A DNA stretch of 64,000 nt, from positions 64,001-128,000 of IMG/VR virus record IMGVR_UViG_3300010049_000009, one strand, 5' to 3'. The stretch is from a virus (Duplodnaviria; Heunggongvirae; Uroviricota; Caudoviricetes). Below the pieces are notes generated by a model. It ran no database searches. It was not told the origin of the DNA and worked only from the letters and a program-made list of their open reading frames with translations. Of this stretch, positions 562-62,117 are shown piece by piece; the first letter of the stretch is position 1, and the number at the start of each line of letters is the position of its first letter. The position numbers were made by a program, and so were the translations under genes.

Positions 562-1473
562 TTAACTATTACTAATTTTCGCACACGCTTCGTTTCCACC
601 CTTCATAAAGATATGACCGAAACCACCTCTTCCGTGGCAACTATTTTTTAGTCTATCCAATGTAACAAGCATTTTTTTGAAATCTTGTGAATTTTTATCA
701 AACTCTGCAACGATATTGAAAAGACCATCTAATGGTGAATCGGTTTCATAACTTTCAGCACCCTCACCGTAACTTGTTTTAATATACTGTGTGAAAGGTC
801 GCCAATATTTATCAAAAAATTCTCTTTCAGAGGGAGAATCATTACCACATTGACCGGGTCTGTATGGGATTTCTTCATCACCTGTTAGGTTATACCATAA
901 CAAAGCGTGAAGATTTTGTCCCTGTGAATTTTCACTTTCTTGATCGAGGGTTGGCCCACTTGTCAAATATGAATTTGCTGCCAATTGTGCCACATTATCT
1001 TTGGCGTTGGCAACCCAATCCATAATTCTCGGAGCCCAATAATCCTCATATGCGCCGGATTGTGGTTTTTGGTAACTAAATTGTTGAATACACCTCAAAT
1101 ACTCATCAGGATCAATTAGTGTCCAACGTTGAGATGTACCACTTTTAAACCCTTGATAAACTCTTCTAATTTCATTGTTGGGACTTTGTAACGACATTTT
1201 GTCTGTTTTAAGTTTTACCATAAAATCAGCAAAGAGATCATACGCTTCGGTTAAAAGAATATCCGTTACATTATGTAAAATTTCAAACAAAGGGTGTTTT
1301 CTATCAATTTTACCCTCACGCATTTCTACTAAAACGTTATGATTAAACAACGTTTTATCACCCCTTTTTATTTCCAACAAAGGTTTTTGTTTAAATTTTG
1401 TTGGGTTTGATGGATTGTAATTATATAAATGGGTGAAATAATCCGCAACTTCTTTTAATTGGTCTTTATTCAT
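562..1473 (-). CDS. Hypothetical protein, paralog of 1473..2405
   Basis: 303 aa ORF; long blocks identical to its neighbour. Confidence 0.85.
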   Translation of the reverse strand: MNKDQLKEVADYFTHLYNYNPSNPTKFKQKPLLEIKRGDKTLFNHNVLVEMREGKIDRKHPLFEILHNVTDILLTEAYDLFADFMVKLKTDKMSLQSPNNEIRRVYQGFKSGTSQRWTLIDPDEYLRCIQQFSYQKPQSGAYEDYWAPRIMDWVANAKDNVAQLAANSYLTSGPTLDQESENSQGQNLHALLWYNLTGDEEIPYRPGQCGNDSPSEREFFDKYWRPFTQYIKTSYGEGAESYETDSPLDGLFNIVAEFDKNSQDFKKMLVTLDRLKNSCHGRGGFGHIFMKGGNEACAKISNS

Positions 1474-2405
1474 TATTTAAAATTACTAATTCGTGAACAC
1501 GCCTCATTACCACCCCTCATGAAGATATGACCAAACCCACCCCTTCCGTGGCAACTATTTTTCAATCTGTCTAATGTGACAAGCATTTTCTTGAAGTCTG
1601 AATAGTTTTTATCAAACTCTGCAACAACATTGAAAAGTCCATCCAATGGTGAATCGGTTTCATATGCCCCACTTCCATCTTCACTATCACCAAAATTAGT
1701 TCCAATATAACTTGTGAAAGGGTTCCAATACGTTTTATTGAAATATTTTTCTTTTGCAACAAAATATTCCTCATCTTTTTTAAGTGGTATTTTTTTATCA
1801 CCTGATAAATCAAACCACAAACGATTAAGGGTTAATTCCCCTTTTGAATTGGTCGCTCTTGGGTCTAAACTTGGACCACTTGTTAAGTATGAATTTGCCG
1901 CCAATTGTGCCACATTATCTTTGGCATTAGCTGCCCAATCCATAATTCGGGGAACCCAATAATCCTCATATGCGCCGGATTGTGGTTTTTGGTAACTAAA
2001 TTGTTGAATACACCTCAAATATTCGTCAGGATCAATTAATTTCCAATGTTGAGGTTGTCGCTTCATGAAGTTCATAAAAACTCTCCTAACAACGTTATTT
2101 GAGTTTTGAACCGACATTGTGTCCGTTTTCAACTTTGACATAAATTCAGAAAACGTATCATACGCTTCGGTCAAAAGAATGTCTTTTACATTATGTAAAA
2201 TTTCAAACAAAGGGTGTTTTGTTTCAATCTTACCATTGCGCATTTCCACTAAAATACTGTGGTTAAACACAGTTTTATCACCACGTTTTATTTCTAACAA
2301 CGTCTGTGGTGTTTTATACCCTGTCGGGTTAGAGGGATTGTAATTCATAATCGATGTGAAACGACTTAATGCTTCCTCTGCCAATATTCTTTGTTCTTTC
2401 GTCAT
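1473..2405 (-). CDS. Hypothetical protein with leader-like N-terminus, paralog of 562..1473
   Basis: 310 aa ORF; shares IDPDEYLRCIQQFSYQKPQSGAYEDYW and LDRLKNSCHGRGGFGHIF. Confidence 0.85.
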   Translation of the reverse strand: MTKEQRILAEEALSRFTSIMNYNPSNPTGYKTPQTLLEIKRGDKTVFNHSILVEMRNGKIETKHPLFEILHNVKDILLTEAYDTFSEFMSKLKTDTMSVQNSNNVVRRVFMNFMKRQPQHWKLIDPDEYLRCIQQFSYQKPQSGAYEDYWVPRIMDWAANAKDNVAQLAANSYLTSGPSLDPRATNSKGELTLNRLWFDLSGDKKIPLKKDEEYFVAKEKYFNKTYWNPFTSYIGTNFGDSEDGSGAYETDSPLDGLFNVVAEFDKNYSDFKKMLVTLDRLKNSCHGRGGFGHIFMRGGNEACSRISNFK

Positions 2406-3840: not shown

Positions 3841-3912
3841 TGTGGATAGAAGGAATCGAACCTCCACCTTGTGGTCCGTAGCCACATATTCTGTCCGTTG
3901 AACTATATCCAC
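3841..3912 (-). tRNA. tRNA-Arg(ACG)
   Basis: Cloverleaf; GTGGATA/TATCCAC acceptor, loop CTACGGA, TTCGATT T-loop. Confidence 0.93.
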
Positions 3913-3916
3913 ATAT

Positions 3917-4093
3917 TTAAGAAGTTGGTTGAATTACAATCCAATATGGATCATCAACTAACACACGTTGAACCAATCGTAGTTTCTTATTTTCGTGCCC
4001 ATCAATTCGGTACACGATTTCGTTATATTTTGTTAAACTCAATTTTGGAAACTTTGATAAAAATTCTTCGGGTGTTGTGTACTTGTTATTCAT
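3917..4093 (-). CDS. Small hypothetical protein (58 aa, below track cutoff)
   Basis: MNNKYTTPEEFLSKF...; start overlaps the stop of the upstream gene. Confidence 0.6.
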   Translation of the reverse strand: MNNKYTTPEEFLSKFPKLSLTKYNEIVYRIDGHENKKLRLVQRVLVDDPYWIVIQPTS

Positions 4094-4325
4094 TTTTTAC
4101 TTTTGTTAAATTTATATAAGCCTTAACATTACATATCATTTTAGGTTTATCAAGTTCTTCAAAGACACCGAGCATGGTGTGATAATGCCCAATCCTGTTT
4201 TGACCGTAAGATATTTTTAATAACAACTCATCTTCGTGTCTTAAATTTTTATCAAACCTCACTAATTCAGCAGGTGTCCATTTCAAACTATCCATTCCAA
4301 ATAACTTTCTAAAAAATTGTTTCAT
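4086..4325 (-). CDS. Hypothetical protein
   Basis: 79 aa ORF in operon orientation. Confidence 0.7.
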   Translation of the reverse strand: MKQFFRKLFGMDSLKWTPAELVRFDKNLRHEDELLLKISYGQNRIGHYHTMLGVFEELDKPKMICNVKAYINLTKVKNE

Positions 4326-4357
4326 TTTAAATTTAACAATTTATAGTTAAAAAAAAT

Positions 4358-4448
4358 GGTGGTTTATAAATAAGAGTTGCGCACCAACCTATGACCTGCG
4401 CAATCAGGGTTTGTTGGATTCATCTTACACCATTGCCGAGTAACCACC
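4358..4448 (-). ncRNA. Candidate structured RNA downstream of tRNA-Phe
   Basis: 7-bp GGTGGTT/AACCACC closing stem; internal 9-bp hairpin whose loop can pair with CCAAC. Confidence 0.4.
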
Positions 4449-4465
4449 TTCGGTTGGATTTCTTG

Positions 4466-4537
4466 TGGTAAGGGGTGGGATCGAACCACCGACACCCGGC
4501 TCTTCAGGCCGGTGCTCTACCACTGAGCTACCTCACC
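4466..4537 (-). tRNA. tRNA-Phe(GAA)
   Basis: Cloverleaf; anticodon arm CCGGC-CTGAAGA-GCCGG. Confidence 0.95.
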
Positions 4538-4543
4538 ATATTG

Positions 4544-4617
4544 TGTCCGAGGTAGGACTCGAACCTACGACCTCCAGCTTATCAGGCGGGTGCTCTAACC
4601 AGCTGAGCTACCCGGAC
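4544..4617 (-). tRNA. tRNA-Ile(GAT)
   Basis: Cloverleaf; loop CTGATAA; one C-T mismatch in the anticodon stem. Confidence 0.92.
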
Positions 4618-4629
4618 AAATATTTCTTG

Positions 4630-4703
<74 letters not shown>

Positions 4704-4851
4704 AAAATAAAAAAAAATTCTCTCATCTTCCATTCTCTCTATTGTATTACTACAACTTCTTTTAGACCAATCTGTTGTACTTCCATAAATTTGGTCGCCT
4801 TTATGAATCATCTATCCTCATTTGCGCTAATCGAGGAACAAGAATTTTTAG

Positions 4852-4928
4852 TGACCGGGGTAGGATTCGAACCTACGACCCCCGCATTAAAAGTGCGATG
4901 CTCTAAATACCAGCTGAGCTACCCGGTC
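4852..4928 (-). tRNA. tRNA-Lys(TTT)
   Basis: Cloverleaf; TCGCA-CTTTTAA-TGCGG. Confidence 0.95.
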
Positions 4929-5003
4929 GATAAAAAAAACAAATGCGTGTCAGATTACCAACTCTTTAAAGGAATGTCTGCTTCCAAACCAACCTACATT
5001 TGT

Positions 5004-5172
5004 AAAAATAAATTAGTCACCCACAGGAACGTCTATTCTACGTTGAAACGTACATTTTTCCGTCGATATGCGTACCCCACACTGTCTAATCTGTTTAGGA
5101 CTTCAAACAACTATGTGCCAGGTAAAGGCTTAATCTTGGCTTCCCCGAACTTAATCTAACCAATTCATTTTT
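5004..5172 (-). ncRNA. 6S RNA-like (SsrS-like) RNA
   Basis: About 170-nt rod: 15-bp closing stem, central bubble with 3' hairpin, long apical stem; AGAU..GUUCG..GCCA and CCUGUGG echo E. coli 6S (from memory). Confidence 0.6.
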
Positions 5173-5175
5173 TAG

Positions 5176-5624
5176 TGGAGTCGGCGGTATCGAAACCGCG
5201 TCTTACATACCTTCAAGTAACAACTTTACTACATGTTTTTGGGTTATCATTTATGGCTGGCTTAACTAAACACCACTTTATTTTTACCTCTATCAAATGG
5301 AAAATATAAAGAAAAACATTCGGGCAGCGCGATGAATTATGATATCCACTACCGAAAACTCTACCTAACAAGAAGGTAGGGGGTTACTATTTTCTGTTTC
5401 CAAGCATAGATGCTCAGCCCTTTTAAAAGTTAAGCACATACCTAACTTTTGACACTTAATTTGCTTCCCTTGGTGTTTCAACCACGTGTCTATGCGGCAA
5501 GCGCATATTGGACAGAAGAAATATTGCTATTGCCTTCTATTTTTTTGCCTGTTTTTAGGTGTTACATGCTACACCACATGAGTTGATTACTGTACTAATC
5601 TGCAATCAAAATCCTGTCGACCCC
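5176..5624 (-). ncRNA. ssrA: tmRNA
   Basis: 5' GGGGTCG / 3' CGACTCC-A acceptor with G3-U70, T-arm GCGGTTTCGATACCGC, tag ORF 5490..5534 GNSNISSVQYALAA* after AAAAAATAGAA. Confidence 0.95.
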
Positions 5625-5640
5625 ATATTTTTTATAATGA

Positions 5641-5808
5641 TTATCCGCAATTTTGCCCTATTGCGATACCAACACAAATCAACCAAAAACCTATCATGAC
5701 CGCTAAAACACACAAAGTATCAGCATCGGGTGTTTCAAACCAACAATGTTTATTATCTAAACTTACTTTTTTCTTTTTCATTTCAAGGGTATTTTTACGG
5801 ATTATCAT
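5641..5808 (-). CDS. Small membrane protein (55 aa)
   Basis: MIIRKNTLEMKKKK...LCVLAVMIGFWLICVGIAIG hydrophobic helix. Confidence 0.5.
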   Translation of the reverse strand: MIIRKNTLEMKKKKVSLDNKHCWFETPDADTLCVLAVMIGFWLICVGIAIGQNCG

Positions 5809-5829
5809 TTTTTTATTTCAAAGAACGTG

Positions 5830-5901
5830 TAGCCGGTACGGGATTCGAACCCGTGACTCCGCCGTGAAAGGGCGATGACTTAACCACTTGTCGAACCGGC
5901 C
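5830..5901 (-). tRNA. tRNA-Glu(TTC)
   Basis: Cloverleaf; TCGCC-CTTTCAC-GGCGG. Confidence 0.95.
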
Positions 5902-5908
5902 ATATTTG

Positions 5909-5994
5909 CGGAAAACAGTGGTCCCGCCCCACAATCAGTTTCCCGATCAGTCTGCTTAGCAGGCAGCCCCAAGCACTCGCCTGGTTTATTTTCC
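5909..5994 (-). tRNA. tRNA-Ser(GCT), non-canonical 8/4 fold
   Basis: 8-bp acceptor GGAAAATA/TGTTTTCC, 6-bp D stem, long variable arm, 4-bp T stem, T-loop GGCGGGA, G73. Confidence 0.85.
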
Positions 5995-6004
5995 TTATAT
6001 TTTG

Positions 6005-6090
6005 CGGAAGTCGGAGGTCCCGCCCCCCAAGCACTTGCGCGCTCCCACGGTTTTCAAGACCGGTCCCAGCCCTTGCCGAGTTCAACTTCC
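6005..6090 (-). tRNA. tRNA-Ser(TGA), non-canonical 8/4 fold
   Basis: 8-bp acceptor GGAAGTTG/CGACTTCC, 6-bp D stem, long variable arm, 4-bp T stem, T-loop GGCGGGA, G73. Confidence 0.85.
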
Positions 6091-6094
6091 TTCG

Positions 6095-6167
6095 TAGCGG
6101 GGGTGGGACTCGAACCCACGACTTTGGGCTTATGAAACCCAATTGCTAACCACTGCATCACCCCGCA
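6095..6167 (-). tRNA. tRNA-Met(CAT), initiator-like
   Basis: T1:T72 mismatch and fMet-like body; anticodon stem TGGGT/GCCCA. Confidence 0.85.
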
Positions 6168-7463: not shown

Positions 7464-7760
7464 TTACACTTTATTTCCGTTTTCATCCCAAGCCTTCCCG
7501 CATTTAATACATATGTAATAAACATCATTTGTGTCTTTAAGGGTTAATCTTCTCTTATCGTGTTTTCCGAAAAACAAACAAGAAAGTTTATCTTTTAATG
7601 AGTCAAGATATTCGTGAAAATCCCAACAACTATCGAAGTGAACAATTAACCAAAAAAAACGTATTAAATCTCTTACCATAATAAGCATCATTCCACACGC
7701 TGCCGTTAAGAAAAGAAATAAAAATATTCGTTCACCTAATGTATAACTGCACCATTCCAT
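7464..7760 (-). CDS. Hypothetical membrane protein with C-terminal CxxC
   Basis: N-terminal hydrophobic helix; CIKCG. Confidence 0.65.
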   Translation of the reverse strand: MEWCSYTLGERIFLFLFLTAACGMMLIMVRDLIRFFWLIVHFDSCWDFHEYLDSLKDKLSCLFFGKHDKRRLTLKDTNDVYYICIKCGKAWDENGNKV

Positions 7761-7764
7761 AACC

Positions 7765-7926
7765 TTAACTCATTATAAATTTTTTAATAAACCAACTTTC
7801 CATAAACCACTCAACAAATCGAAATGCGCTTGGGTGGTGGGTTGAAATCCATAATACCATTACAATTGAAATAATTATAACGCTCATGAAACCCCATAAT
7901 AATACCCATAAAATACCCAATATCAT
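7765..7926 (-). CDS. Small membrane protein (53 aa)
   Basis: MILGILWVLLWGFMSVIIISIVMVLW...; fills the gap between neighbours. Confidence 0.55.
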   Translation of the reverse strand: MILGILWVLLWGFMSVIIISIVMVLWISTHHPSAFRFVEWFMESWFIKKFIMS

Positions 7927-7938
7927 TTTGTTGATTTA

Positions 7939-8595
7939 TTAAGGGTAATTGTATTCTTTGTTTTCCATTGAACACACTTCCCTAAATAGAGTAATAATTT
8001 GGGGGATTAGGTCTTCCCTTCCCATTAAAATTTTCTTCTTGATTGTGTGTTCGTACTTCAACTTATCTTCATCACAAGTATCAAAATAGATACGTTGTGT
8101 GGGCGATACTTGTATCCATTGGTTATTTACAATATCAATGTTTTTACGAATAAATTGAGGATAAGCATTTCCATCCCACATTTTAACCATAATTATTTCG
8201 TCTTTATGTAAAAACGCAAATGTTATGTTATTAACGTCAGTGTTCACATAATCCTTATGAAATTCATCATACAATGGGGCATATAATTCGCTCTTATTTG
8301 CACCCGATTGTTGTTTCTTTTTCAGTTTATCTTCGTCAGCAAACGTGCAACAAACATTATACAAATACACCCTTGTTTTGCTTTCCAAATCCCTTTGAAT
8401 GAGATTAACAGCATTGTCAAAATATTCTTTGAAATCCAAACTTCGCAAACTTGATGGGTTGAATTTGTTGATATTAAAATATCTCTGACATATAATGTCA
8501 TTATTAATCTTCAACTCGAAGGAATAATCATGTTTTACAAACGTTTGATTTTCCTTTCCACTTGGTGGTTGAGGTTTTTTGATATTCTTATCCAT
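7939..8595 (-). CDS. Hypothetical protein
   Basis: 218 aa ORF downstream of the exonuclease. Confidence 0.8.
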   Translation of the reverse strand: MDKNIKKPQPPSGKENQTFVKHDYSFELKINNDIICQRYFNINKFNPSSLRSLDFKEYFDNAVNLIQRDLESKTRVYLYNVCCTFADEDKLKKKQQSGANKSELYAPLYDEFHKDYVNTDVNNITFAFLHKDEIIMVKMWDGNAYPQFIRKNIDIVNNQWIQVSPTQRIYFDTCDEDKLKYEHTIKKKILMGREDLIPQIITLFREVCSMENKEYNYP

Positions 8596-10054: not shown

Positions 10055-10381
10055 TTATTTTTGTATTAATTTTCTTTTGGAATGAAAAAACTGCGTCATT
10101 TTATAACATTCGATAGTTAAATTATCTTCGTTTGGTCGTATTGAATCATAAATTGGTATCAAAATATCAAATATTTCTCTGTATAGTAAAATATAGGAAT
10201 TTTGAGATACACAATCAGGTGTGTTCAATAATTTGGTTATAAATACACACGAAATACTTTCTAACTCTTCTTCTGTTAAATCAGAAAGTAATTCCTTTTC
10301 TTTAAAATATAATTGTAATATAAAGCGTATTTTATCCGCATTTAATTCTATATTCTCCTCTAACCACCTTCTGTTGTCCAT
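10055..10381 (-). CDS. Hypothetical protein
   Basis: 108 aa ORF in operon. Confidence 0.7.
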   Translation of the reverse strand: MDNRRWLEENIELNADKIRFILQLYFKEKELLSDLTEEELESISCVFITKLLNTPDCVSQNSYILLYREIFDILIPIYDSIRPNEDNLTIECYKMTQFFHSKRKLIQK

Positions 10382-10383
10382 AA

Positions 10384-10638
10384 TTATTCTAAAATTGAAA
10401 TTGTGAACTTCACGTTTTTGTTTAAAAACTGATTTAACACTTCGTGTTTACCTGTTCGGTCTATTGAGTGTAATGATAATCCTACACAGGAATCATCAAA
10501 CTCACTTGTTGGTTGAACTACCGTGATTTCTTGAAAGTGTCCACCGTCAATAAATAATTCTCCCGAATTTCCCTCTAATGAAAAAGAATTTTTTTTACAA
10601 CCACTCTCTATACAACATTTTTTAATCTCTTCTGACAT
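10384..10638 (-). CDS. Hypothetical protein
   Basis: 84 aa ORF in operon. Confidence 0.65.
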   Translation of the reverse strand: MSEEIKKCCIESGCKKNSFSLEGNSGELFIDGGHFQEITVVQPTSEFDDSCVGLSLHSIDRTGKHEVLNQFLNKNVKFTISILE

Positions 10639-59760: not shown

Positions 59761-60501
59761 TTATAGTATAATATTATTTTCAATACGGTTTTCCGCTATT
59801 TTAAAATATTTAGTATCCAATTCTATCCCAATGTAATTACGGTTTTCTTCTTTTGCTGCTAAACAAGTTGTACCTGATCCCATAAATGGGTCCAATACCA
59901 AATCACCTTCATTTGAATAACTTCGGATTAACCATTGTAACAGTGATACCGGTTTCAAAAATGGGTGTACTTGTCCCTGCTGTTGTCTAGACCACTTTTG
60001 GGGAAAATTAGATAGAATACTGCTTGGGTGTCTTGTACCTGTGTTGTTTGTTTCAACACTTTTAACACCGTAATTCAAATTGTTGTTCTTGGTCAATGTT
60101 AATTTTCTTGCATACGGTTCACCCTCTTCCATTTGCGGATTATATAATGAGGCGGAATCACCAAACACACAAATAAATTCGTGTTTTTTTAATGGCATAT
60201 ATTTGGCGGTTAATGGGGAACCCGGTTTGCTCTTTGCCCATATAAGTTCATATCTAAACTTTTTGGTGTTACTCATAATCAATTTATGAAAAAACATACC
60301 ACCCGCAAACACCAAAATATTCCTTTTGGGTTTTATAATTCGGTTAAACTCTTCCCACATTCTAAATAAATCAATCTCCGCATCAATATGTGTATTATGA
60401 ATTGAATATGGTGGGTCTGTTACTATTAAGTCTACGCTTTTATCAGGGATTTGACTTAATATACCAAAACAATCCCCATTGTATATTTGATTTACTACCA
60501 T
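59761..60501 (-). CDS. Beta-class DNA methyltransferase (DPPY, probably N6-adenine)
   Basis: TDPPY precedes DPFMGSGTT; HPFLKP. Confidence 0.9.
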   Translation of the reverse strand: MVVNQIYNGDCFGILSQIPDKSVDLIVTDPPYSIHNTHIDAEIDLFRMWEEFNRIIKPKRNILVFAGGMFFHKLIMSNTKKFRYELIWAKSKPGSPLTAKYMPLKKHEFICVFGDSASLYNPQMEEGEPYARKLTLTKNNNLNYGVKSVETNNTGTRHPSSILSNFPQKWSRQQQGQVHPFLKPVSLLQWLIRSYSNEGDLVLDPFMGSGTTCLAAKEENRNYIGIELDTKYFKIAENRIENNIIL

Positions 60502-60773
60502 TAATTTGCTGTCATTGGTTGTTGATTAACCCAATTTAAAAAATCCCTCGCCTTACCATCCTTTTGACTTTCTTCATACTTATTAACCCACGAACTTAAC
60601 CAAGTCCATGTATTAAATTTCATTGTGTTACAACCCTTTACATAACGATAATACTCATCTGCATCACTTATGATTTGATCTACTGTTTTATTAACATATT
60701 TACTGTTTTTCAAAAGAGTTTCAATGATAACCTGTCGAAGACTCTCGTTTCTTTGTATTTCTACTACATCCAT
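60501..60773 (-). CDS. Hypothetical protein
   Basis: 90 aa ORF. Confidence 0.65.
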   Translation of the reverse strand: MDVVEIQRNESLRQVIIETLLKNSKYVNKTVDQIISDADEYYRYVKGCNTMKFNTWTWLSSWVNKYEESQKDGKARDFLNWVNQQPMTAN

Positions 60774-60820
60774 AACTAAATTATTTTTATGTTTATACTA
60801 AAAATACAATTTTATTACGT

Positions 60821-60847
60821 AAAAAAAAACCCCACTTCACAGTGGGG
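60821..60847 (-). terminator. Rho-independent terminator
   Basis: CCCCACT-gtga-AGTGGGG followed by 9 T on the minus strand. Confidence 0.85.
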
Positions 60848-60867
60848 CAACTCTTCTATCAGATTAC

Positions 60868-60947
60868 TTTACCGACAACCCTATTTCTTCGTGTTCGCTC
60901 GCCACTACTTACGAAGCATTTCCACTAATAACCATAATAACGGTAAA
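60868..60947 (-). ncRNA. Candidate RNA containing a 23S rRNA helix-13 mimic
   Basis: AGTAGTGGCGAGCGAA inside CTTCGT/ACGAAG, enclosed by TTTACCG/CGGTAAA. Confidence 0.6.
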
Positions 60948-60971
60948 TACTTAAACAATGAAAAAAAGCAT

Positions 60972-62117
60972 TTACCCATTTTCTCTGATAGAAGTCAGCA
61001 ATTCGTTCATCTCCTCTCGCTTGCTATTAATATAGTGTTCAAACACAGTTTTTACCTGTTCTTTATGTTTTTCTTTTGTGAATTTATCATCAAATTGTGT
61101 CATATTATTCCTAAACTCAACCGGAACACTATCCTCAATGTAAGTCTGAATAACAGTTGAAATAGCATAGTGAACACTATTCAGATTTGAGCACCATAAC
61201 ACAGAATCTGTTAATCCACCACCTTCTTTCAACATCCAACCGCTCGGTTGTTCCGGTATAACACAAATTGGTATTGTTTTACATCTCATTGCTTCCAACG
61301 GAGTGTATCCGAAGTTTGTGAAGAAATCATACCATACAACTGCAACAGATTTTTCCAATTCTTCTGCAAAATGTTCGTGGGTTAATCCATGAAGTTGTTT
61401 AAACGATATAAATTTGAAAATCGGATATTTTAAGTAGAATAATTTAACTATTCTATTGACCGCCGTTCTGTCATTTGAAACTACCGCTATTTGTAAATCT
61501 TTTTCACGTGATACCTTTTCAAAAAACAACGGGGATATGAATGGTTCAATAACCGTTACTTTCAAGTACGGCATTGCTTCCAATATCAAGTTTTTCTGAA
61601 TTTCAGAGGTTGTAATTACATCCAAAATTCCGTGCGAACCAAATTCTACACCAACCGGCATTGTTTCAGTAACCATATTGAAGTTTTGGCAAAGAACAAT
61701 CCTTTTACAAGGCAATTTCTTGGTTTCGTGCATAAGAGAAGAAAATATTTCCGGTATAATCAGAATATCACTAATATTAATTTTAATATCATCCTTCTTG
61801 ACATTACGATGTGGTATATCGGTCATAAATTTCTGACCGAAAACTTCACCAACACCAACAAATTCGTCATCATCGTCTATTTGGTATAAAAATTCAACAT
61901 TATATCCTAACTCTAATAGGGTGTAACCCAAATTATACATATAATATTGTGAACCCGATGGGTTTTCCTTACTATCCATTACCCAAAAATAAACTTTGTT
62001 TTCATTTTGGTTAAACTTATCTATTTCGCCTACTATTTTGGCAATAATATCCTCTTTTTTTGGTTTCGGTTGAGGTACGTTATCAACTATACTAACTCCA
62101 AGTTTTTGACCTTTCAT
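60972..62117 (-). CDS. GT-B glycosyltransferase-like protein (GT4-like)
   Basis: PSGSQ.YMY.L...L..LGYNV, IIPE, NFGYTPLEAMRC. Confidence 0.7.
   Translation of the reverse strand: MKGQKLGVSIVDNVPQPKPKKEDIIAKIVGEIDKFNQNENKVYFWVMDSKENPSGSQYYMYNLGYTLLELGYNVEFLYQIDDDDEFVGVGEVFGQKFMTDIPHRNVKKDDIKINISDILIIPEIFSSLMHETKKLPCKRIVLCQNFNMVTETMPVGVEFGSHGILDVITTSEIQKNLILEAMPYLKVTVIEPFISPLFFEKVSREKDLQIAVVSNDRTAVNRIVKLFYLKYPIFKFISFKQLHGLTHEHFAEELEKSVAVVWYDFFTNFGYTPLEAMRCKTIPICVIPEQPSGWMLKEGGGLTDSVLWCSNLNSVHYAISTVIQTYIEDSVPVEFRNNMTQFDDKFTKEKHKEQVKTVFEHYINSKREEMNELLTSIRENG

Follow-up and report, generated by a model that had tools for sequence, protein, structure and literature searches.

The minus strand of a large phage genome carries a 30-nt hairpin that presents the tip of 23S rRNA helix 13 (H13) on a stem of the phage's own, and this loop, which recurs elsewhere on different stems and usually beside tRNA genes, was probably kept on purpose as a mimic of part of the ribosome. 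The hairpin lies in the window, the whole 64,000-nt stretch analysed here (positions 64,001 to 128,000 of the IMG/VR record IMGVR_UViG_3300010049_000009). That it works by molecular mimicry, offering the rRNA part to a host ligand, is a reading for which we see an even chance; its main rivals are a decoy of an rRNA-directed enzyme and a structural cap. An earlier note on this DNA had taken the element for a functional mimic and not for contamination or a dead rRNA fragment, and that view is supported by the recurrence of the same loop on covarying stems, by its non-coding, tRNA-linked contexts and by two negative controls.

The loop module (AGTAGTGGCGAGCGAA in the DNA, Table 1) matches nt 241-256 of E. 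coli 23S rRNA exactly, with U at the position where Y is allowed. The earlier note had given this E. coli position as approximate, and the 23S gene of the reference E. coli rrn operon agrees with it, the C variant of the 16-mer beginning at 23S nt 241. The module consists of the AGUA/GAA bulged-G consensus, a G-C pair, a U-G pair and a GGCGA pentaloop, and the minus strand of the window reads GCUUCGU-A-AGUAGUGGCGAGCGAA-C-ACGAAGAA, in which the stem arms CTTCGT (60916-60911) and ACGAAG (60892-60887) are not rRNA sequence and one base is left unpaired on each side. The flanking stem is thus present as claimed, and it is canonical in the rRNA register: in the alignment of 60888-60915 to positions 236-263 of the Rfam LSU model (RF02541; 11.6 bits, E=0.15 locally), the five closing pairs and both inner pairs are all canonical despite the non-rRNA letters of the stem. 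With the tip of H13 in 23S rRNA the element shares the identical 16-nt loop module (Y=U), the register of the closing helix and the one unpaired base per side. The sequence fits the consensus of the bulged-G (sarcin-ricin / loop E) motif, aligns to the motif in rRNA and is flanked by helices, which is consistent with a bulged-G fold; nearest-neighbour folding did not recover the rRNA-like fold, as expected for a non-canonical motif, and hence lends no independent support.

The 16-mer occurs once in the 367,155-bp genome, and none of 100 dinucleotide shuffles of the window contained it with two or fewer mismatches. We propose a phage H13-tip family, R1, defined by the exact rRNA loop, a non-rRNA stem of at least 4 bp in the rRNA register and a location in non-coding sequence, all of which the window copy displays. 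The R1 covariance model scored 46.6 bits (E=6e-9) at the window site, its sole match in the genome, and 40-45 bits on other members, with one copy per genome. The earlier note had also closed the hairpin with an outer TTTACCG/CGGTAAA stem; the two arms are indeed complementary, but their pairing is not supported statistically, since a perfect complement of at least 7 nt arises in 13% of flank shuffles and the MFE fold of 161 nt pairs the UUUACCG arm within a different hairpin.

Table 1. Coordinates of the H13-like hairpin, its surroundings and related elements (positions in the window unless a contig is named).
Feature	Position	Strand	Description
16-nt loop module	60894..60909	minus	AGUAGUGGCGAGCGAA; equals the tip of 23S rRNA helix 13
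Complete H13-like hairpin, 30 nt	60887..60916	minus	Own 6-bp stem CUUCGU/ACGAAG, 1x1 unpaired A/C, loop module
Proposed outer stem, 5' arm UUUACCG	60941..60947	minus	Sequence present
Proposed outer stem, 3' arm CGGUAAA	60868..60874	minus	Sequence present
Intrinsic terminator	60820..60848	minus	8-bp G+C-rich stem 60848-60829, GUGA loop, U9; consensus scan
Upstream ORF, 381 aa, possible GT-B glycosyltransferase	60972..62117	minus	Hairpin lies in its 3' untranslated region
orf90, small ORF	60501..60773	minus	Shares the ~480-nt variable slot with hairpin and terminator
GAC-like domain (GTPase-associated centre, 23S H43-H44)	4939..5003	minus	Own stem ACAAAUG/CAUUUGU, then U-run
tRNA/tmRNA cluster	3841-6167	minus	7 tRNA genes at Rfam gathering score and a 452-nt tmRNA, 61 bits
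Long tRNA-like RNAs, ~150-185 nt	L004 ~930-1090; L014 ~140-300; L008 ~8065-8240; L165 ~1470-1600 (minus)		

Outside the loop, the element does not resemble rRNA. Its likeness to E. coli 23S rRNA is a 17-nt match (nt 241-257) with unrelated stem and flanks, and an LSU rRNA gene or fragment was rejected as its identity, the score lying far from the gathering score of 50 bits and the alignment spanning 28 nt at model positions 236-263 only. Searched across the genome at E<=10, the LSU model gave no match, and the genome is without an rRNA gene. cmscan against Rfam 15, at the gathering score and also at E<=10, returned for the window only terminator look-alikes and the LSU model itself, and at 15 related loci no family reached the gathering score either; no family of Rfam 15 covers the element. 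The weak matches to sRNA-terminator look-alikes at the locus stem from the intrinsic terminator. We found no account of phage-encoded copies of rRNA hairpins in Rfam 15 or in the papers searched, where the 16-mer turns up only as a primer or probe.

When 2.9 million viral contigs of IMG/VR were scanned for the exact loop, 39 loci were obtained. Of these, 8 are genuine 23S pieces and about 13 fall within long ORFs, which leaves about 18 in non-coding sequence, about 15 of them distinct. The earlier note had suggested a search of related phages for the 16-mer with covarying stems, and the non-coding loci do have paired stems of differing sequence. About 15 viral contigs besides that of the window, most of them 50-300 kb long, bear the loop on other stems, for example AUUCUUA/UAAGAAU (L005), GAUAU/AUAUC (L008) and CAGU/ACUG (L016), with stems of 13-14 bp in L027 and 9-10 bp in L040. 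Flanking stems of at least 7 bp (7-14) were present at 4 of 31 non-rRNA loci, as compared with 1.65% of random positions in the same loci. As one control we relaxed the loop at positions 6 and 12 only (pattern AGTAGNGGCGANCGAA), which gave 102 further loci with other bases at these positions; most of them lay within long ORFs, and a single one, which kept the 6-12 pair as U-A, was adjacent to a tRNA gene. Adjacency to tRNA genes separated the exact loop from the first 67 of these variant-loop controls (Fisher p=7e-6). The other control, a second universal 23S 16-mer from the sarcin-ricin loop, returned only real rRNA and ORF matches and no mimics. Among cellular genomes, 118 of 120 matches were true 23S and one was of the hairpin type, on a Gammaproteobacteria MAG contig.

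These counts bear on the reading that the hairpin has no function, being a chance match, an assembly or primer artefact, decaying captured rDNA, or an attachment or homing site acting at the DNA level. The 16-mer is a common LSU primer and probe sequence, and a collection of the size of IMG/VR permits tens of chance 16-mer matches, about 13 of which do fall in ORFs, where they are without a flanking stem and in a number that fits the chance expectation; L041, a relative of the phage, is moreover without the hairpin. We nevertheless consider absence of function very improbable, because the stem is canonical in the rRNA register and covaries across lineages, the enrichment is specific to non-coding, tRNA-adjacent, same-strand contexts when set against the two controls, and the flanks show no rRNA similarity in a record that is complete with direct terminal repeats. 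Those repeats also indicate that the record was not assembled as a prophage within a host chromosome. An attachment site or homing target with host rDNA identity was rejected separately, as the identity ends at the loop, whose flanks pair in a compensatory stem.

Two further observations come from these scans. The MAG contig (L296, CAZHYS010000007.1, binned as bacterial) has a non-rRNA H13-like hairpin with a UCGCUU/AAGCGA stem and its motif at ~1059-1074 (minus strand), followed by a strong terminator after about 90 nt in the same layout as in the window. A stretch of GGTCGGGCAATACC AGTAGTGGCGACCGAA ACGGAAGCC, with a U-C mismatch at loop positions 6 and 12, is identical in eleven viral contigs (L061, L063, L076, L084, L092, L099, L102, L104, L130, L131 and L133), mostly outside long ORFs; a single prophage group may have it as a conserved non-coding element.

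To describe the stems together we aligned 15 copies without gaps; these were picked after inspection, which biases the count, and the copies in another register (L015 and L020) and the ORF matches were left out. Of the 15 copies, 15, 14, 11 and 13, respectively, have a pair at the four inner stem positions, each of which shows 3-6 pair types. The covariation score was 0.649 as against 0.272 in shuffles, none of 500 reaching the observed value, and did not exceed 0.26 when the pairing partners were slid. The same inner pairs were found in the tRNA-adjacent subset, which was selected on an independent criterion. Related phages, compared in three pairs, share 57-80% identity in the 100-nt flanks and keep the loop at 16/16 positions, an invariance that is partly ascertainment, since the family was found by an exact-loop search. 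In L002 and L018 the likeness to 23S rRNA extends over nt 214-260 (75-87% identity, E ~1e-3 to 1e-2), which suggests that the H13 module was captured from rDNA. Apart from this extension, comparison of the genome and of every locus by blastn with 23S and with the E. coli 16S, 23S and 5S rRNAs gave as further matches only the GAC-like element of the window and a GAC-like segment of L003.

The contexts of the copies point towards tRNA genes. A tRNA gene stands no more than 600 nt away at eleven of the 31 non-rRNA loci, which share its strand in every case and come from contigs of 39-278 kb; the copy in L027 is 4 nt upstream of tRNA-Ser and that in L005 is 25 nt downstream of tRNA-His. Others stand shortly before terminators (the window, L003, L024 and L296), and the window copy, unlike most others, is placed about 54.7 kb from the nearest tRNA gene and hence outside a tRNA array. 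Some copies are embedded in long tRNA-like RNAs that possess both an acceptor stem and a T-arm (GGUUCGAAUCC), where the hairpin sits inside the D-loop (L008), at the variable-arm position (L082) or after the D-arm (L004 and L014); the tRNA-like RNAs of L004, L014, L008 and L165 are not called as tRNAs by ARAGORN or Rfam.

Several observations accompany these tRNA loci. Within the tRNA/tmRNA cluster of the window, 6006-6090 gave a sub-threshold match to a tRNA-Sec-like sequence (31.8 bits against 47). On the 3' side of the hairpin in L016 (12509-13663, plus strand) there are a tRNA-Met, a match to the twister-P5 ribozyme that is barely above threshold (38.0 against 37.6 bits) and a tmRNA. L005 carries at 7700-8019 (plus strand) two tRNAs of the amber suppressor type, having a CUA anticodon, and a further tRNA whose anticodon loop is odd, which hints at stop-codon recoding in that phage.

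Positions directly beside the 5' or 3' ends of tRNAs, as in L027 and L005, or before terminators would also suit a purely structural module, that is, a very stable cap resistant to nucleases, or a landmark for processing, where tRNA-array transcripts and 3' UTRs end, that has no rRNA-binding partner. Such a cap should tolerate changes in the loop, yet all 16 rRNA bases are kept in independent lineages and variant loops are otherwise missing from tRNA-adjacent and terminator contexts; there is, besides, one copy per genome and not one per tRNA, and the 55-nt GAC-like domain that co-occurs with the hairpin is a protein-binding fold and not a cap. We therefore judge a merely structural role unlikely, and a mimic with a host ligand remains the preferred reading.

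The GAC-like domain of the window, which resembles the GTPase-associated centre (GAC, H43-H44) of 23S rRNA, lies between a tRNA (4852-4928) and the tmRNA (5173-5624) and on their strand. Its match at 4947-4997 (minus strand) covers positions 1096-1145 of the LSU model (15.6 bits, E=0.0064 locally), and it is 82% identical to a 23S rRNA over 51 nt (E=6e-5 genome-wide). We aligned the window copy to two rRNAs and to three further copies from phages. In L003, a 218-kb contig, 58 nt located about 100 nt upstream of the H13-like hairpin are GAC-like, matching E. coli nt 1057-1104 at E=2e-5, and L045 and L051 have GAC-like domains, each on its own closing stem. Large phages thus appear to copy at least two rRNA modules, the H13 hairpin among them. 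H13 is far from the GAC on the ribosome, so a single common ligand is unlikely. The minus strand of L003 at 10055-10617 comprises, in order, a degenerate tRNA-like element, the GAC-like 58-mer, the H13-like hairpin and a terminator, and modules of the translation apparatus may be joined in this composite region into one RNA of 400-550 nt.

Around the hairpin, the earlier note's anchors were largely confirmed: a consensus scan found the strong terminator, its stem at 60848-60829 followed by T9 and its start 38 nt downstream of the hairpin, and the stop codon of the upstream ORF occupies 60972-60974. The label 'glycosyltransferase' for that ORF is plausible and unconfirmed, as neither Pfam nor PHROG gave a match and its ESM-atlas neighbours include Glycos_transf_1 clusters. 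orf90 has no informative relative that we could find. The downstream genes encode two DNA methyltransferases and a ClpX-like ATPase, the latter matching phages of many hosts at only about 45%. Among 50,697 phage records, blastn with the locus or with the L027 spacer as query found nothing usable as a cultured relative.

The only relative found, L041, encodes a homologue of the upstream protein with 74% identity and is collinear on both sides of the slot. Where the window (60492-60978) holds hairpin, terminator and orf90, L041 (4346-4821) has an unrelated ORF for a predicted membrane protein of 139 aa, making the slot a hypervariable cassette between conserved genes. L041 has no hairpin at the syntenic slot, nor did R1 find one in the rest of this 137-kb fragment (38% complete). 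The earlier note had named loss of the loop from homologous loci as evidence against its reading, and formally the one homologous locus does lack it; this marks the window element as accessory and does not show that it is meaningless.

The location in a 3' UTR, just upstream of an intrinsic terminator, invites the idea of a cis-acting operon regulator in which a protein bound to the hairpin modulates adjacent termination or the decay of the upstream mRNA. We regard this as improbable: elsewhere the position of the module relative to ORFs and terminators varies, the neighbouring genes are unrelated to ribosomes, and an alternative antiterminator pairing is not evident. Leaders of r-protein operons, which mimic the rRNA binding sites of L1, L10, L20, S15 and others (PMC7247131), resemble the element in that a short non-ribosomal RNA reproduces the conserved nucleotides of an rRNA protein site on another scaffold, and differ from it in residing in the 5' UTRs of cellular r-protein operons, whereas the window element belongs to a phage and lies 3' of a non-ribosomal ORF, with other copies inside tRNA arrays. 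Assignment to this class was rejected on location, the element being 3' of the putative glycosyltransferase gene and 5' of orf90 and the methyltransferase genes, and no H13 mimic was found among the r-protein leaders of Rfam. A leader sensing an r-protein is unlikely given this site and a genome without bL35 and uL11 (no match to PF01632 or PF00298 anywhere in it). Except for Seg-like homing endonucleases and thymidylate synthase, no neighbouring protein families are common to the carriers; without a conserved neighbour protein and without genomic bL35 or uL11, the partner of the mimic is probably a host factor.

In the ribosome, the H13 tip (G248-C249) forms the 50S E-site pocket with H21 and H88, a pocket recently described as the binding site of a new antibiotic; bL35 touches H13 at multiple contacts, in agreement with the earlier note, and bL28 is nearby (PMC13372681). 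The earlier note had proposed a decoy for bL35/uL15, for assembly proteins or for a defence factor, or else an r-protein sensor. Candidate ligands of the hairpin are bL35 (the sole documented contact), bL28, uL15 and an rRNA-directed enzyme or toxin. To our knowledge, no factor is known to bind the isolated H13 hairpin.

A ligand of the last kind would make the element an anti-defence decoy, a special case of mimicry set apart by its ligand class, in which the hairpin and the GAC-like domain would be pseudo-substrates or competitive inhibitors of an enzyme, from the host or from a competitor, by which 23S rRNA is cut or modified at these sites. A parallel would be the role proposed for phage tRNA arrays in countering host nucleases that cut tRNA anticodon loops. 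The patchy, accessory distribution would agree with such a role, as would the variable slot beside two DNA methyltransferase genes, the co-location with tRNA arrays and tmRNA and the copying of only certain rRNA modules. On the other hand, we know of no defence system or toxin that targets H13 and retrieved none, a catalytic enzyme is seldom neutralised by a sub-stoichiometric RNA, and no mimic was found of the sarcin-ricin loop, which toxins classically target. A weapon-directed decoy is in our estimate rather unlikely, if slightly less so than the structural cap.

For the preferred reading, mimicry towards a host ligand, we envisage an accessory, independently folding RNA module that copies the H13 tip letter for letter in its loop and has a stem of the phage's own sequence. 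We infer that the window copy would form the 3' end of the upstream mRNA or else part of a small RNA derived from that end and stopping at the terminator, and that in other large phages the module would be transcribed in tRNA arrays or grafted onto long tRNA-like RNAs. From such arrays and scaffolds, tRNA-processing enzymes would free an abundant, stable RNA. By showing the H13 tip, the hairpin would then most likely bind or titrate a factor whose normal target is this tip on the large subunit or its precursor.

rRNA mimicry is well established in cellular r-protein leaders, and there are a few viral decoys alike: EBER1 of EBV binds the ribosomal protein L22, and the pseudo-ToxI RNAs of phages are further decoys. 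These are abundant virus-encoded small RNAs that imitate a cellular or defence RNA to bind its protein, as the hairpin would; they have defined partners and experimental proof, whereas the ligands of the window hairpin are candidates. Another comparison is offered by rnaC and rnaD of T4 (species 1 and 2), annotated only as small stable RNAs (AF158101), which are stable non-tRNA RNAs co-transcribed with the phage tRNA array; rnaC has a T-arm-like end that resembles the long tRNA-like carriers in L004, L008, L014 and L082. T4 differs in having no R1 match, and the window copy differs in lying outside a tRNA array; rnaC and rnaD are a loose parallel to the long tRNA-like stable RNAs. The element would extend rRNA mimicry, already known from r-protein leaders, to phage-encoded copies of rRNA hairpins.

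Tentatively, and with less confidence than we place in mimicry by the hairpin itself, we suggest that a small set of mimics of rRNA modules is found in large phages, including at least the tip of H13 and the H43-H44 GAC. These would be transcribed with the tRNA and tmRNA genes, sometimes grafted onto tRNA-like RNAs, and during infection would serve as decoys for universal ribosome-binding proteins or for rRNA-directed weapons of the host. If this is true, the modules would constitute a previously unrecognised class of phage ncRNA and a new layer of translational takeover or counter-defence. If functional, they would be a new kind of gene in phage tRNA arrays, would give an experimental handle on the recognition of the poorly studied H13 tip and E-site pocket, and would perhaps account for a share of the stable, long tRNA-like RNAs that phage tRNA clusters contain.
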